Below, piece after piece: positions 5,142 to 48,214 of a stretch of 64,000 bases of DNA. Source of the DNA: a virus; IMG/VR virus record IMGVR_UViG_3300029951_000020, positions 1-64,000 of that record; one strand, given 5' to 3'. The notes below the pieces were generated by a model. The model was not told the origin of the DNA and did no database searches. It saw only the letters and a program-made list of their open reading frames with translations. The first letter of the stretch is position 1. Each line of letters starts with the position of its first letter. The translations under genes were made by a program, and so were the position numbers.

Positions 5142-5238
5142 CAACTTTGCTCCTTTTTCCTTTTCTGAGTGCGTCCCTGACGATCTCTTCGTGATCGCCA
5201 CGTCCGCACTGGCAAAATAACACTAAAAATCCGGTTTT

Positions 5239-5592
5239 TCAACGACCGTTCATCATTTTGTTCTGCCGAACGACCTCTTCCGCATGCCGCCGAGCCCGAT
5301 CAATCTTGTTGGGGTCGTACTTATTGCCGAAATTGCAGTTTTTTCGCGCCTCGTGGTACGACTCGATCATCTCAAAGACCTTTGAGTCTCTGCCGTAGTA
5401 CGCAATGTCGTCCGCCTTCGCATTGTTGTCGTCCAGGCAGAGTGTCTGGACGTTGACGTCGTAGCTATGACCGCCTTTCGCCTGCGGAATCACATGGTCC
5501 ATCGTCAGGTTCGCACGCGATCCGCACTTCAGGCAGCGGTGACCGTCCCGTTCGAGGATTCGGCGGCGCTGGGTGGCGGTGATGGAGGACAT
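5239..5592 (-). CDS. HNH endonuclease
   Basis: RDGHRCLKCGS..L..DHVIP..GG....N.Q.LC...N..K matches the HNH signature. Confidence 0.8.
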   Translation of the reverse strand: MSSITATQRRRILERDGHRCLKCGSRANLTMDHVIPQAKGGHSYDVNVQTLCLDDNNAKADDIAYYGRDSKVFEMIESYHEARKNCNFGNKYDPNKIDRARRHAEEVVRQNKMMNGR

Positions 5593-5611
5593 GGGACGAG
5601 ATTATCACGGC

Positions 5612-5640
5612 TTGCATCGGTAATCAATTGCCTGTATAAC
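5612..5640 (+). promoter_or_regulatory. sigma70-like promoter TTGCAT-17 nt-TATAAC
   Basis: The -10 ends 8 nt before ATG 5649, which implies a leaderless mRNA. Confidence 0.4.
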
Positions 5641-5648
5641 GTTCCCTC

Positions 5649-5843
5649 ATGAACCTTGAAACACTTGTTGCCCAGTTGAAGAGGCGCTGCGCTGGCAGCA
5701 ACCAGAAGGTGGTCGCCGCGGAGATGGGCATCAGCAACAACTACCTGAGTGTGGTCCTGCGCGGCAAGCTGGAGCCGGGACCGAAGATCCTCGACGCGTT
5801 GGGGCTCGAAAAACGTGTTTCCTACGTGGAGAAGAAGGCGTGA
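5649..5843 (+). CDS. Cro/XRE-family HTH regulator
   Basis: QKVVAAEMGISNNYLSVVLRGK is a helix-turn-helix pattern. The gene is divergent from the HNH block. Confidence 0.7.
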   Translation: MNLETLVAQLKRRCAGSNQKVVAAEMGISNNYLSVVLRGKLEPGPKILDALGLEKRVSYVEKKA

Positions 5844-5946
5844 CCAGCGACCGTCAAGCCCATTACCCCTTCCTCCTCAAGCACCCCTTCGTCGCCGGCA
5901 TCCTGTGCGGCCTCGTGATCGAACTGGTCTATCGGTGGTGTACGTC

Positions 5947-6228
5947 ATGACAGCCTCCGTCAAAGCCCTGTCTTCCCGCATGAAGACCCTCCTCGCTCAG
6001 TACGCCAAGACCTACACGCCCGGCAAGCCCATGCACAACGTCACGCTCGACGCGACGCACGGCATCCTTACCGATGCGCAGGACGTCATCGGGCAGCAGT
6101 CGGACCTGATCTCGCACATGTCCTCGTGCGCCGACTGCGCCGACGATATGGGATCGTGTCAGGTAGCGCAGGGGTTCATGACGGCGCTTTATCCGGAGGG
6201 GTTGCGAGACGCAGGATCTTCGGCGTGA
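5947..6228 (+). CDS. hypothetical protein (93 aa)
   Basis: Internal ATG of the 5749..6228 frame. Confidence 0.5.
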   Translation: MTASVKALSSRMKTLLAQYAKTYTPGKPMHNVTLDATHGILTDAQDVIGQQSDLISHMSSCADCADDMGSCQVAQGFMTALYPEGLRDAGSSA

Positions 6229-44901: not shown

Positions 44902-45263
44902 ATACTATTTCCAACGGCGCGAAACACACCGTCCACCAGGATCGGCATGTAGCGCTGATCCTTGCCTGACCACTGCAACACCTTGACGCGGCCGTCGTTA
45001 TAGTCGGCGGCGATGGCGAAGCAGATACTCATCAGCACGGGGTTGCCCACCAGCAGCAGGTGGTCATCGTCGCAGAAGTCGGCGAGCTTGCGGTGCAGAT
45101 CGTCGAGGAAGCGGTCGGGGGTCCAGGGCGGGACGTTGCTCCCTAATAGGTAGATGATCTCGTCGCCGTGTTCGAGCGCCCCGGACAGGTCGAACTTTGG
45201 GACCAGTTCCATCGTTTGGGGGTCGCGGTGGAGCTGGTTTTGGACGGCGAAGATGCGGCTCAT
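44898..45263 (-). CDS. hypothetical protein (121 aa)
   Basis: Track ORF. Confidence 0.55.
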   Translation of the reverse strand: MSRIFAVQNQLHRDPQTMELVPKFDLSGALEHGDEIIYLLGSNVPPWTPDRFLDDLHRKLADFCDDDHLLLVGNPVLMSICFAIAADYNDGRVKVLQWSGKDQRYMPILVDGVFRAVGNSI

Positions 45264-45673
45264 TCTGGGCTCTTTGGGTTCAACACGAAGCAGGCGATAT
45301 GTCGGCCGGTTCCTTTGCCCTGAGAACGGTCCTCGGTGGCAAGCCAGCGCACATCGCCCAGATTACGCACTTCAGCGCCGGCTGCCAAGAGCATGAGCAC
45401 CCACTTGTCGATTGGGTACACGAGGACGACTCGCTTGCCTTTCTGCTGCTCGGCGATGGCCTTGCGCACCCATGCGGTCGGACCTTTCTTCTTGCCTTGG
45501 TGGATGATGGAACCAAACGGCGGATTGACGTAGTTCGACGTGCCCCACTCATCGGTGAGACCGTCGAATCCCTCCGGCTTCGGGTACGGGCACGGATCGA
45601 AGTTGAAGCCGAACTCCAGATCAAGCTGTTCGTAGAGAGGACGGCGTGAGCCAGTAGTGCTTGCCGTCATCAC
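45260..45673 (-). CDS. Dam-like N6-adenine DNA methyltransferase (phage Dam family), N-terminus frame-split
   Basis: LDLEFGFNFDPCP ... NPPFG. The W-x-T-P motif expected just upstream (HYWLTP) sits in a different frame, 45621..45737. Confidence 0.65.
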   Translation of the reverse strand: MMTASTTGSRRPLYEQLDLEFGFNFDPCPYPKPEGFDGLTDEWGTSNYVNPPFGSIIHQGKKKGPTAWVRKAIAEQQKGKRVVLVYPIDKWVLMLLAAGAEVRNLGDVRWLATEDRSQGKGTGRHIACFVLNPKSPE

Positions 45674-45814: not shown

Positions 45815-48214
45815 TCAGATCCACCCCTTGATCACGTCGCCATTGATTTCGCCGGCCACATCGAATTTGGATCGCAACGCCGGGATGATCCGCTCGTCCA
45901 CCGTCCCCGTCCCCACGATGTCGATGATCTCCAGCGCATGCTTCTTGCCGATCAACTGTGGACGATCTTCGCTCTGTAGGCGGTCGATCAATCGGAAGGT
46001 GTTGGTATGGTAAATCGCGGTCTTCGCTGCGTAGAGCGGAAGACCAGAGCCGCCGACCTGGGCCTTGGACAGGAACCAACATACGTCCTCGGGATCATTC
46101 TGGAAGCGATGCTTGGCCGCAGCCCGATCTTCATCGCTCACCCGTCCATCATACTGCACGAACGGGATGCCCTTCTTCGTCATCTCGATCTTGAGCAGGT
46201 CGATGTCCATGTCGAAGCGGCACCACACGATGCCTTTATGCCTGCGATCCTCGATCACCTCCATCGTCGTATCAACGCGGGGGTTGCGACCAGGCATGAC
46301 GTGGTGGACCTCCTCGATCTCGGATGGCAGGTAGCCTGATGCGATCTGTTGGAGACGCAGCAACCGAACGATGGGCAGCACGCTGGTTACCAACTCACCG
46401 TCCACCTCGACCATGTACTCGTCGCGCAGCGCTTGGTAGATGCGGTCCTGCTCCGGCGTCATCTCGAAGTACCGCTTCGAGTACAGCTTCTCCGGCAGGT
46501 TGATGTCGGCGTCATCCTCGGTGACGCGAGAGAAGATCGGCTGGATGATCTGGTTGAGGTAGTCGAGTCGCTTGTACCCCTTCAGCAGCGGGAACTCGCG
46601 ACCGCCGTCCTTCGGCTTGATCTTGACCCATACGCCGAAGTGCGTCTTGAACTCGACGTAACTGTCGAGATGGTGCTTCAACCAGAAGTCGGCGTCGAGG
46701 AACTTGAACTGGGAGTAGAGATCGAAGGGGCCGTTGGCGACCGGGGTTCCATTGAGTCCAGTTCGATAAGGGGCGAAGGGACCAGCAGCGACCAGCGTTT
46801 TACTCAGCTTGCCGATGTTTCGACCAGGGGGGCTCTTGGCTCGCCAGCAGTTATGGACGAGGTATCCGTTTGCGAAATAATGCGGGCATCCTTCAACTTC
46901 GAGATTATAGACGGTGACAGGCACTCTTCGTTCTTGAACCTGAACACAGTCCACCCGAGTTCTTCCAGTTTGGTTTGCTTCTTGATGTCCTTCGCCCTGA
47001 TCGCATGGGCCAGATGACTCAGACCGTCCACTTCGATTGCGATCATCCGTGCGGGATGTGCCAAATCGGGCTTGTAGTTGGTGGGATAGCCAGGCTGCTT
47101 TCCGCCCAACTTGATCGGATACTCGGGAACCCACTCCGAGCCCAGGATGTTCCACAGTTCCTGCTGTGCAGGCGTCAAACCACGACCGTTCCCACCACGG
47201 TTCGCCGCTCCCACACAGTCCTTGCCCTGAAGTGCTGCGCTGATCCGTGCGCGGGTTTCGTCCGAACGTGGCTGGCCCTTGTTGGCGGGTGGGCGACCTT
47301 TGTTCTTGCCCATCATCGCCTTGCTGACTTTCGCGTAGGTCTCCGGCTTGAACACTTTGGCCCTGTGTTCCGGAGTATTCATTCTCCACTTCGCTGAGCA
47401 GGATCGACCGCAGAATCTGCCTCTGTTCGGTTATTCCTTCTTCAACTTCGGAACAAACAGCGCCCCGCAAATCTGACAGGGCCTCTCCGGTAGTCGAAAG
47501 TAATAGACCCTGTGTCTTTTCGGCATGTTCCCACCCTAAATCGGTAAACAGCGGATGATCCGCCGTACATTCAATGAGCAACTTATCTTTCGAGAAAAGT
47601 TGCACCGTTTGCTGTGTCTTCGACACATGAACATATGAGATGGGCCGAAGACCATTTGAGGTAAGCACCGAGTCGCCCACCCTCAGCGACTCAATAGGTC
47701 TCTCACCAGTTTCGGTGGAGATCATCGTGCCTGCAACAAAGCACTCATCGGCTACGAAGTTGGATCGATGTCGCTGCAGAAACTCCTTCGCTGTAGCCTT
47801 GCCACGATCCGTCATAAACGCATCGTAACTCATTGTTAAAACAGCGAAGTCCTTATGCTTCACCACCCGCTCGATCTTCTCCTGGTGCTTCAGGGTGTTC
47901 GCCTTCGGCGACTCGTAGTAGGCCGCGCGCGTCTTGCGCATAATGCGATCGGGAACGTGTCTGCCCAGCTCATCCTCGACCCAGGACCGCTGCACGCCGT
48001 TGGGCGCCAGCACAAACAGCCCGTCTACCTTCCCCTGCTCGTACAGGTAGCAGGTCTTGTCGATGGTCGCCTTGGTCTTGCCGGTGCGCGGCACCCAACC
48101 CAGGAAGCGCGCGACGTCGTCGCGGTGCTCCTCGAACTCCTTCAGCTGGTGGGCGAACGGCTCGGACTTGAACTCGTAGCGGTATTCCAAGACAGCTTCC
48201 TTTTCTATTGACAA
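45815..48214 (-). CDS. SNF2-family helicase interrupted by an intein
   Basis: Motif I PRTGKTKA; DE|C...HN|CWRAK (DExH split by the intein); C-terminal SNF2 domain. The start may be TTG 48190, after AGAAAAGGAAG. Confidence 0.85.
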   Translation of the reverse strand: MSIEKEAVLEYRYEFKSEPFAHQLKEFEEHRDDVARFLGWVPRTGKTKATIDKTCYLYEQGKVDGLFVLAPNGVQRSWVEDELGRHVPDRIMRKTRAAYYESPKANTLKHQEKIERVVKHKDFAVLTMSYDAFMTDRGKATAKEFLQRHRSNFVADECFVAGTMISTETGERPIESLRVGDSVLTSNGLRPISYVHVSKTQQTVQLFSKDKLLIECTADHPLFTDLGWEHAEKTQGLLLSTTGEALSDLRGAVCSEVEEGITEQRQILRSILLSEVENEYSGTQGQSVQAGDLRESQQGDDGQEQRSPTRQQGPATFGRNPRTDQRSTSGQGLCGSGEPWWERSWFDACTAGTVEHPGLGVGSRVSDQVGRKAAWLSHQLQARFGTSRTDDRNRSGRSESSGPCDQGEGHQEANQTGRTRVDCVQVQERRVPVTVYNLEVEGCPHYFANGYLVHNCWRAKSPPGRNIGKLSKTLVAAGPFAPYRTGLNGTPVANGPFDLYSQFKFLDADFWLKHHLDSYVEFKTHFGVWVKIKPKDGGREFPLLKGYKRLDYLNQIIQPIFSRVTEDDADINLPEKLYSKRYFEMTPEQDRIYQALRDEYMVEVDGELVTSVLPIVRLLRLQQIASGYLPSEIEEVHHVMPGRNPRVDTTMEVIEDRRHKGIVWCRFDMDIDLLKIEMTKKGIPFVQYDGRVSDEDRAAAKHRFQNDPEDVCWFLSKAQVGGSGLPLYAAKTAIYHTNTFRLIDRLQSEDRPQLIGKKHALEIIDIVGTGTVDERIIPALRSKFDVAGEINGDVIKGWI
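46804..47382 (-). CDS. NUMOD3 + DUF559/Vsr-like homing endonuclease, nested out of frame in the intein
   Basis: Track ORF. Contains ETYAKVSKAMMGK and ETRARISAALQGK (NUMOD3-like) and YKPDLAHPARMIAIEVDGLSH...KD..K...LGWTVFRF (PD-(D/E)XK). Confidence 0.65.
   Translation of the reverse strand: MNTPEHRAKVFKPETYAKVSKAMMGKNKGRPPANKGQPRSDETRARISAALQGKDCVGAANRGGNGRGLTPAQQELWNILGSEWVPEYPIKLGGKQPGYPTNYKPDLAHPARMIAIEVDGLSHLAHAIRAKDIKKQTKLEELGWTVFRFKNEECLSPSIISKLKDARIISQTDTSSITAGEPRAPLVETSAS
46850..47743 (-). mobile_element. intein (298 codons) in helicase motif II
   Basis: Begins CFVAGTMIS (block A) and has TADHPLFT (block B). Ends VYNLEVEGCPHYFANGYLVHN, followed by a +1 Cys. Confidence 0.8.

Follow-up and report, generated by a model that had tools for sequence, protein, structure and literature searches.

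How can one stretch of DNA serve an intein in the frame of its host gene and a homing endonuclease in another frame, with the host frame open throughout? This question is raised by a locus in the viral record IMGVR_UViG_3300029951_000020 of IMG/VR, positions 1 to 64,000 of which form the window (the whole 64,000-nucleotide (nt) stretch that was analysed; positions are those of the window unless another locus is named). On its minus strand, a gene for an SNF2-family helicase contains an intein, and a second open reading frame (ORF), related to genes for Vsr-like homing endonucleases, overlaps the intein at an offset of +1. We consider it very probable that the locus is a two-gene mobile element, inserted where the SNF2 helicase gene of a phage encodes the Walker-B/DExH motif, with the intein in frame 0 and a homing-endonuclease gene in frame +1. 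The coordinates of its parts are collected in Table 1.

The helicase ORF reads SNFVADE/CFVAGTMIS at the first splice junction and ANGYLVHN/CWRAKSP at the second (junctions are marked by a slash), and its frame contains no stop from 48214 to 45815. Public gene calls place the start at 48190, 8 codons downstream of the TTG at 48214. In Pfam searches SNF2-rel_dom and Helicase_C flank the insert, which itself passes the thresholds of Hint_2 (E 3e-9; 38 bits against a cut-off of 28.4) and of TIGR01443 intein_Cterm (21.7 bits against 15.6). The Intein_splicing and intein_Nterm profiles stay below their cut-offs in the window and are matched by 47 of 51 family precursors. The residues of a class-1 intein are all present, namely a Cys1 nucleophile (codon 47743-47741), a block B T-x-x-H (C-T-A-D-H-P) and a C-terminal His-Asn (Asn codon 46852-46850) followed by a +1 Cys (GYLVHN/C); the Cys1 and block B His columns are invariant across the 51 precursors. 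A nuclease domain within the intein frame, as in canonical large inteins, was not matched in frame 0 of the window by Pfam or TIGRFAM. A protein search with the intein alone gave three weak matches and, owing to the word prefilter, missed the precursor (P0012) that is identical to the window helicase ORF and is found on 8 JGI contigs.

Comparison with intein-less helicases fixes the insertion site. The 501-residue product expected after splicing aligns over its full length with a helicase of Pseudomonas phage LKO4 that lacks the intein, and does so seamlessly at the DEAH motif. FVADE-CWRAKSP of the window lies opposite YVLDE-AHYIKTP of LKO4, and the insert is therefore within motif II (DExH). 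Each of 681 GenBank phage homologues (at least 80% query coverage) showed a single matching place, with one aligned piece among the matches listed, which indicates that the insert is lacking there. A search with the spliced protein identified a much closer empty allele (P0013; 492 residues, 83% amino-acid identity) on a syntenic 41-kb contig; it occupies positions 1501-2979 of locus L144 (Logan SRR34093456) and has 80% nucleotide identity to the window helicase gene. The sole large difference between the two DNAs is a gap of exactly 894 nt. The junctions are GCC GAT GAG/TCG TGG CGC in the empty allele and GCC GAT GAG/intein/TGC TGG CGA in the window, and the uninterrupted site of L144 reads CATTTTGTTGCCGATGAG/TCGTGGCGCGCGAAAGCT. 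The intein is thus a precise in-frame insertion in a conserved host motif for which intein-less alleles exist. The DE/SW allele of L144 is a plausible candidate for a homing target and could serve as a defined substrate in assays of cleavage and homing. Motif II (46841-46849, minus strand) reads DECW in the spliced window helicase and DESW in the empty relative, as against the usual DEAH or DEGH of SNF2 proteins; the Trp in place of His occurs in both and is therefore a trait of the lineage, not a consequence of the intein.

The protein encoded at +1 has the features of a homing endonuclease. In addition to the NUMOD3 match, the 192-codon ORF matches Pfam DUF559 above the cut-off (E 1.2e-7). 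The family-invariant residues E117 (codon 47034-47032), D119, H123 and D132 are all intact in the window (alignment A2), and the spacing of nine residues between this His and the following Asp equals that between H213 and D222 of I-Bth0305I. When a profile built from the 192-residue protein and seven database homologues was compared with the PDB, it matched 3hrl (E 2e-10) and 3r3p (E 0.0018). The AlphaFold2 (AF2) model of the protein has blocks with a predicted local distance difference test score (pLDDT) of mostly 73-89 over residues 71-160, and its best specific Foldseek matches are 3hrl (DUF559; probability 1.00), 3r3p (I-Bth0305I; 0.96-0.99) and 1vsr (E. coli Vsr; 0.87). With a predicted nuclease fold, a composite E-D-H-D motif and an N-terminal NUMOD-type motif, the product belongs to the Vsr-like lineage that includes the endonucleases of the fractured genes (Dassa et al. 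2009) and the EDxHD enzymes (Taylor et al. 2011). Its stop codon ends 46 nt past the last base of the intein, inside the C-extein, so that 533 nt within the intein and 46 nt in the C-extein are dual coding. The identical protein (P0001) is present on 6 public contigs.

Table 1. Features of the helicase, intein and endonuclease locus in the window
Feature	Position	Strand	Remarks
SNF2-family helicase precursor ORF	45815-48214	-	799 codons from TTG 48214; ORF list, Pfam
N-extein	47744-48214	-	ends at motif II D-E (FVADE); aligns with YVLDE of LKO4 and FVADE of L144
Class-1 intein, Cys1 to His-Asn	46850-47743	-	298 codons; exact 894-nt insertion relative to the intein-less allele
N-terminal Hint lobe	47492-47743	-	block A CFVAGT..., block B CTADHPLFT; Pfam Hint_2 at residues 158-200; custom N-Hint HMM E 4.5e-32
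Helicase-frame linker	46931-47491	-	hydrophilic, low-complexity; stop-free, unconserved as protein, dual-coded with the endonuclease gene
C-terminal Hint lobe	46850-46930	-	blocks F/G, VTVYNLEVEGCPHYFANGYLVHN; TIGR01443 above cut-off; custom C-Hint HMM E 1.1e-18
+1 Cys codon	46847-46849	-	TGC, first C-extein residue; Ser (TCG) in the intein-less allele
C-extein	45815-46849	-	CWRAKSP... to the stop; alignments with the LKO4 helicase and the L144 allele
Ancestral 5' part of endonuclease gene	47431-47526	-	ATG 47526-47524 preceded by GGGTGGGAAC; first zinc knuckle CQIC; in-frame TAA 47433-47431
Endonuclease-frame codons between TAA and ATG 47382	47383-47430	-	second zinc knuckle (RFCGRSCSAKWR); untranslated unless read through
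NUMOD3 + Vsr-like/DUF559 (EDxHD-type) homing endonuclease ORF	46804-47382	-	192 codons, +1 frame, intact; Pfam, AF2/Foldseek
NUMOD3 DNA-binding motif	47221-47277	-	residues 36-54 of the 192-residue ORF; PF07460 E 3.2e-6, 27.4 bits against cut-off 20.4
Vsr-like nuclease core	46918-47178	-	DUF559 (Pfam); custom HMM E 2e-45; AF2 pLDDT mostly 73-89

An earlier note on this DNA, made from its letters alone, had described a 298-codon intein with a +1 Cys in the DExH box, with recognisable blocks A, B, F and G and a low-complexity middle. Coordinates, profile matches and the gap relative to L144 bear this out, Hint_2 matching within the N-lobe and TIGR01443 in the C-lobe, and the middle proved to be hydrophilic text that is unconserved as protein. 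Two of the comparisons that the note had suggested agree with it: the profiles run on both frames placed Hint in frame 0 and DUF559 and NUMOD3 in frame +1, and the helicases with and without the insert differ cleanly. Its DUF559/Vsr-like core, its distance from the splice junction to the endonuclease stop, and its estimate of about 530 nt of dual coding likewise hold, as does its observation that the only recognisable endonuclease lies outside the intein frame in an open helicase frame. Of the two NUMOD3-like motifs that it named, one stretch was recovered by HMMER (PF07460), and the second is seen by eye only.

The same arrangement recurs far beyond the window. We retrieved 78 IMG/VR loci with an alignment of the endonuclease and scanned their three forward frames with small custom hidden Markov models (HMMs) of the N-Hint lobe, the C-Hint lobe and the Vsr core. 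At 56 loci, among them the window, Pseudomonas phage MR14 and Vibrio phage 24, both Hint lobes lie in one contiguous frame without a stop and the endonuclease lies at +1. Seven more have this arrangement, again without stops, and were missed by the C-Hint or the N-Hint HMM; they include the nearest relatives of the window (LVHN/SS). Six loci share the geometry and are fractured in the sense of Dassa et al., with 15-26 stops in the intein frame, two (L077 and L032) have broken frames, and about 10 have no detectable intein. No locus in the census carried 1-14 intein-frame stops, and at none of about 83 related intein-associated loci was the endonuclease in frame with the intein. A tblastn search of GenBank phages with the endonuclease gave matches inside the annotated helicase genes of MR14 and of Vibrio phages 24 and CP-T1, in which an ORF of 241 or 249 residues lies at +1 inside an intein (DE/CFPAGT...VVVHN/CHH) while the helicase frame is open; these ORFs encode a zinc ribbon, a NUMOD-like region and a Vsr-like core. 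A scan of GTDB with one genome per species (alignment A1) added 14 contiguous +1 loci, spread over many phyla in metagenome-assembled and other genomes, one of them that of the isolate Ktedonobacter racemifer DSM 44963, and an additional contiguous example sits in a RecD-like helicase. The total is about 77 contiguous loci against 6 fractured ones. The host proteins are P-loop NTPases, mostly SF2 helicases (ResIII, DEAD, Helicase_C), with SNF2 helicases, clamp-loader-like AAA proteins and terminases among the others, and the insertion is almost always at the Walker-B DE/C site. In many relatives the ATG of the endonuclease is preceded at 5-10 nt by GGAG or GAGG, located within intein codons such as D-E-V-L, and these well-spaced Shine-Dalgarno sequences argue for independent initiation.

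A few loci of the census deserve separate mention. The fractured ones (L061, L063, L065, L066, L068 and L070) have GC contents of 0.26-0.34 and insertion sites DEAHS/C or DEHHR/C. At L067 (2721-3311), an intein of 196 residues contains a +1 ORF of only 101 residues in which the catalytic core is kept and the DNA-binding region is lost; this locus looks like an intermediate of endonuclease deletion or decay. In L005 (and also in L004 and L006), a second intein (5199-6182; N-Hint match at 5199-5414, C-Hint match at 6111-6182) follows the endonuclease-bearing one in the same 1390-residue ORF of an SNF2/methylase-type host. In L003, a stand-alone DUF559/Vsr-like gene (1744-2268) lies directly upstream of the intein-containing helicase gene, and two Vsr-like genes thus stand side by side.

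The open helicase frame is not what the composition of the endonuclease gene would produce by itself. At an offset of +1, a stop in the intein frame requires an endonuclease codon ending in T before a codon starting with AA, AG or GA (a risky position). Each NNT codon has an NNC synonym, and a +1 host frame can therefore stay open without any amino-acid change in the endonuclease, a rule that follows from the genetic code. At an offset of +2, a TGA is unavoidable wherever Met precedes Ile, Met, Thr, Asn or Lys, and the window endonuclease holds M-N, M-M and M-I pairs. When synonymous codons were permuted within each endonuclease ORF and stops were counted in the intein frame, a mean of 8.3 stops was expected for the window, and none of 1000 permutations was stop-free (P(0) < 0.001). 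For the contiguous loci 1.5-20 stops were expected each, with P(0) <= 0.002 in 54 of 56, and stop-free loci range over GC contents of 0.32-0.65. In the stop-free loci 24% of the endonuclease codons at non-risky positions end in T (2354/9715), and 0/3834 do so at risky positions, a value that follows necessarily from the classing of loci by absence of stops; in the fractured loci, which are free of this constraint, T-ending codons make up 17-30% at risky positions. These results show that the helicase frame is kept open by selection.

Amino-acid conservation follows the other frame in the middle of the intein. We counted mismatches by codon position in 8 related pairs with 67-88% nucleotide identity, intein position 1 being endonuclease position 3. 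Mismatch frequencies at intein positions 1, 2 and 3 were 0.21, 0.15 and 0.43 in the N-Hint lobe and 0.10, 0.06 and 0.27 in the C-Hint lobe, as against 0.40, 0.16 and 0.15 in the linker/NUMOD region and 0.38, 0.16 and 0.14 in the Vsr core. The peak is thus at intein position 3 in the Hint lobes and at intein position 1 between them. The few conserved residues of the intein-frame linker (LQxR and RSGR; L380, Q381 and R394 within window residues 380-397, alignment A5) are not a protein motif but shadows, in the -1 frame, of YKxDL and IEVDG in the endonuclease. Both the periodicity and the shadows lead us to regard the intein middle as unconstrained filler and the endonuclease frame as the real gene there. 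Frame-specific purifying selection on the endonuclease frame is accordingly found for the family, as sampled by these pairs.

In the mechanism that we propose, ribosomes would read straight through the intein frame to give one precursor, in which the N-lobe (about 85 residues) and the C-lobe (about 28 residues) would associate and the hydrophilic linker of about 185 residues would loop out. Protein splicing would release the 501-residue helicase with a motif II of DECW, as suggested by the intact splicing residues and the selection for an open frame. In the relatives of the family the endonuclease would be translated separately, from its own ATG and Shine-Dalgarno sequence within the intein coding sequence. 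As I-Bth0305I suggests by analogy, the enzyme would cut intein-less helicase alleles at DE followed by Ser, Cys or Ala, and recombinational repair would copy the whole unit of intein plus endonuclease. Over the overlap, amino-acid selection in the family acts on the endonuclease frame only, and the helicase frame is constrained only to avoid stops. The window copy would yield at best an N-terminally truncated enzyme of 192 residues from ATG 47382.

The last point introduces the observations that weigh against the reading of this locus as a working two-gene element. Upstream of ATG 47382 the endonuclease frame reads MPKRHRVYYFRLPERPCQICGALFVPKLKKE, the TAA, then PNRGRFCGRSCSAKWR and the Met, which together form a CxxC...FCxxxC zinc ribbon with an in-frame stop inside it. 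The ribbon is uninterrupted at the N-termini of homologues (MR14 and Vibrio phage 24; L001, L002, L003, P0002, P0003 and P0005), and the ancestral gene, of about 240 codons, therefore had its start at ATG 47526. The 192-residue ORF of the earlier note is indeed intact, but it is only the 3' four-fifths of this longer gene, cut by the TAA, and the window endonuclease is therefore N-terminally truncated or recently inactivated. The start that remains is the conserved Met of AKWRM; a GGAG lies only 1 nt upstream of it, a poor spacing. Reading of the TAA by a suppressor tRNA was considered and rejected, as no such tRNA is encoded in the window, of which the single tRNA is a tRNA-Ile(GAT) (29700-29776, minus strand). 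It is almost as probable as its opposite that the endonuclease gene of this copy is already dead. The locus would then work as a mini-intein whose long linker is junk, and the 192-residue ORF would be a recent relic without further lesions as yet, an explanation that concerns the activity of the element and not its architecture. The stop at a place where relatives are intact, the spacing before ATG 47382 and the lack of a suppressor tRNA all favour it, as do the stages of decay seen in the family (L067 and the broken frames of L077 and L032). On the other hand, the lesion is single, the family-invariant catalytic residues and the NUMOD3 motif are all intact, the Met of AKWRM provides a restart codon 48 nt after the stop, and some called members of the family are equally short (P0006 with 190 residues and P0007 with 130). 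The chances that the truncated 192-residue enzyme would still be active appear roughly even. Within the intein, between the ancestral ATG and the TAA, there is a terminator-like hairpin followed by a T-run (GCCCTGTCAGATTTGCGGGGC GCTGTTTGTT; 47462-47482, minus strand); counts of promoters and terminators scanned over 45.6-48.5 kb were not above the shuffled expectation, and RNA folding around the endonuclease start gave a z-score of -2.5 and no specific structure tied to the ribosome-binding site.

Other adverse points concern the models and the sampling. The Foldseek E-values are weak (0.02-0.17) despite the probabilities of 0.87-1.0. The AF2 model of the intein frame, built from a 4-sequence alignment, has a pLDDT of 31.6 and was not used for disorder, so that the linker is described as probably disordered from its composition and absent conservation only. 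Splicing, endonuclease expression and DNA cleavage are predicted here from the genes alone. There is no variation among at least 13 contigs of the window lineage, and no intein relative above about 48% endonuclease identity to the window appeared in searches of IMG/VR, protein and metagenome data; a metagenome scan with the window endonuclease returned the identical contig and one distant match only. Since the lineage is clonal and without close relatives, the frame-specific selection described above applies to the family and not to the window copy.

Over 1.6-4.0 kb, a length that includes both frames and the TAA, six fetched loci (JGI, ENA and Logan assemblies) match the window with 100% identity, and the 192-residue protein and the precursor (P0012/P0132) occur on at least 13 public contigs from these three sources, some of which may be re-assemblies of the same reads, with several differently named samples included. 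Given this identity between several public assemblies, a sequencing error can be dismissed. The members of the precursor cluster (791, 379 and 288 residues) were considered as sequence variants and rejected as such, being the same sequence with other gene-call starts; the window lineage is therefore clonal in the databases. That two compensating indels mask an ordinary in-frame fusion of intein and endonuclease is a practically negligible possibility: it was prompted only by the unusual geometry and nothing was found in its favour, while about 77 independent and strongly diverged loci share the geometry, those in the finished genomes of MR14 and CP-T1/Vibrio phage 24 among them, and none has an in-frame endonuclease. 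Just as negligible is the idea that the +1 ORF encodes no protein and is open only by chance in DNA rich in GC. The window does have 61% GC and many spurious long ORFs nearby, but two Pfam families match this ORF above gathering thresholds, its homologues number hundreds of sequences, the relatives show third-position periodicity in the endonuclease frame, and a Vsr-like fold is confidently predicted. The fractured gene of Dassa et al., in which the helicase would be made as two polypeptides with split-intein halves and joined by trans-splicing, shares the endonuclease family and the 3' overlap with the window, and some gene callers give only a 379-residue C-terminal fragment (from a GTG, VDCVQ...) or a 288-residue piece. 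It is nevertheless very unlikely here, because the helicase frame has no stop across the whole intein, stop avoidance is statistically strong in the window and its relatives, and true fractured relatives carry 15-26 stops. Only marginally less improbable is a programmed +1 ribosomal frameshift, possibly followed by a shift back, that would yield a fusion of intein and endonuclease. The overlap of two frames on the same strand and the endonuclease frames that are open far upstream of any ATG in some loci (for example L140) would suit it. However, the endonuclease ORF of most relatives opens with an ATG that has a good Shine-Dalgarno sequence, a second shift would be needed to regain frame 0, stops close the endonuclease frame of the window upstream of 47526, and no conserved slippery site is evident, though no systematic search for one was made.

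The two-gene element thus remains the reading that we prefer, and the family may tell something of its history. The earlier note had regarded the locus as an intermediate between an invaded mini-intein and a fractured gene. Kinship with the fractured genes of Dassa et al. is borne out by the same Vsr-like/NUMOD family, the same 3' overlap with the C-intein and the same frame geometry in the fractured loci; a rare transitional form, however, it is not, given about 77 contiguous loci against 6 fractured. The contiguous +1 Vsr-like form is the predominant and stably selected state of the family. That the fractured loci keep their Hint lobes in the same frame and the endonuclease at +1 suggests derivation from, or interconversion with, the contiguous form. 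The two states differ only in the tolerance of T at risky third positions of the endonuclease, and C-to-T drift in AT-rich genomes would therefore convert one into the other. It is possible, although we stop a little short of calling it probable, that sense-strand +1 Vsr-like/EDxHD genes in contiguous DE/C inteins are a large, selected and unrecognised class across phages and many bacterial phyla, and that they may be the source pool of fractured genes and hence of natural split inteins.

Public annotations of this locus (L081-L085 and L143; P0001, P0012 and P0132-P0135) exist in at least three incompatible versions: a 791-residue precursor without the endonuclease, the endonuclease with a 288-residue helicase fragment, and a 379-residue fragment from the GTG (VDCVQ). 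Annotation thus goes systematically wrong for overlapped inteins of this type. What is taken for a mini-intein or a decaying intein in a helicase or another P-loop NTPase of phages or bacteria may in many cases be a fully armed mobile element, with a nuclease that annotation in one frame cannot reveal. The family is also a clean natural case of long dual coding on the same strand (0.5-0.7 kb), with protein selection in one frame and absence of stops in the other.

Some observations on the surroundings may be added. Three short contigs (L083, L084 and L085, from Logan, ENA and JGI) share an end at window position 46750, 100 nt past the C-terminal splice junction, and differ at their other ends; the shared end could mark a branch point in the population, for example where alleles co-exist, or could come from three assemblies of one set of reads. 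Immediately downstream of the helicase gene, an ORF of 137 residues (45260-45673, minus strand) contains NYVNPPFG, which resembles an N6-adenine methyltransferase motif, and the syntenic gene of L144 has a weak Pfam Dam match. The phage of the window is uncultivated and siphovirus-like; it is distant from the Yuavirus/PaMx11-like phages of Pseudomonas and from Bordetella phages (helicase about 43% amino-acid identity), and megablast of the window gave almost no matches.

Several known systems share parts of this arrangement. I-Bth0305I, the prototype of the EDxHD homing endonucleases (Taylor et al. 2011, PMC3239194; PDB 3R3P), has an N-terminal NUMOD-type region and a C-terminal Vsr-like nuclease like the window protein, with a Foldseek template-modelling (TM) score of 0.61-0.70 relative to the target. 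It is located in a group I intron of recA, whereas the window endonuclease is located in an intein. The window protein is also nearer to DUF559 (3hrl, with the E-value given above) than to I-Bth0305I, and its family has the extra zinc ribbon. An insertion in a methylase gene of phage ShiLan (PMC11855218) resembles the window in being open in the host frame and hiding a homing endonuclease in another frame; it differs in having no recognisable intein and an endonuclease of the HNH type.

Another such group is formed by the non-canonical inteins, that is, contiguous intein ORFs without an in-frame endonuclease and with a recognisable endonuclease in an overlapping frame, and the window locus is one of these. 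Gosselin, Arsenault and Gogarten (bioRxiv 10.1101/2025.01.02.630785) described inteins of actinobacteriophages with out-of-frame or antisense endonucleases, proposed that a free-standing endonuclease gene had invaded a mini-intein, and noted that, apart from their cases, endonucleases of the Vsr-like type had been known from split inteins only. Like the window intein, theirs are contiguous, with an unstructured in-frame middle and the endonuclease in another frame. However, their sense-strand case is endonuclease VII-like and in frame 3, and their Vsr-like cases are antisense, while the window gene is Vsr-like, sense and at +1; their hosts are terminase, minor capsid protein, DNA polymerase and thymidylate synthase, as against the Walker-B DE/C site of the window helicase. 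Phillips, DeSimone and Gogarten (bioRxiv 10.64898/2026.09.14.751524) reported a cyanobacterial dnaX intein with a LAGLIDADG endonuclease in the +2 frame, first noted by Gorbalenya in 1998. It shares with the window the sense-strand overlap and an intein-frame middle predicted to be disordered, and its purifying selection on the endonuclease frame with a relaxed host frame is the same result as that of our positional analysis; it differs in the endonuclease family, the offset and the cellular dnaX host. The out-of-frame or antisense cases in the literature (Gorbalenya 1998; Gosselin 2025; Phillips 2026) thus comprise an endonuclease VII-like gene in frame 3, antisense LAGLIDADG and Vsr-like genes, and the +2 LAGLIDADG gene of dnaX. 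As out-of-frame intein endonucleases have already been published, the novelty of the locus is narrower than the earlier note assumed. Full-text literature searches gave no description of a sense-strand +1 Vsr-like form or of its prevalence; their coverage is incomplete, so that a prior description is possible, and the sense-strand +1 Vsr-like version at Walker-B sites appears to be undescribed.

There is also a direct link with the fractured genes. Dassa et al. 2009 (PMC2677866) described split inteins that flank a free-standing Vsr-like or GIY-YIG endonuclease gene and proposed in-frame capture as an alternative outcome; an overlapped contiguous form is not described there. Like the window, their loci have a Vsr-like core with NUMOD-type motifs, on the same strand and with the 3' end of the endonuclease gene overlapping the C-intein, and their hosts are phage DNA-metabolism enzymes. 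The six fractured loci retrieved here also agree with the window in having both Hint lobes in one frame and the endonuclease at +1. Of the marks of a fractured gene, the window has the free-standing endonuclease overlapping the C-intein (blocks F/G); the terminated host ORF and the separate start of the C-intein part are absent, there is no intergenic spacer, and one contiguous precursor is encoded. Dual coding extends over about 530-720 nt in the contiguous form and over 6-69 nt in fractured genes, and avoidance of stops is under selection in the former. The contiguous state is thus tied to fractured genes and split inteins by homology and by geometry, and the route from a mini-intein invaded by a free-standing endonuclease, through an overlapped intein, to a split intein therefore becomes testable with real intermediates.

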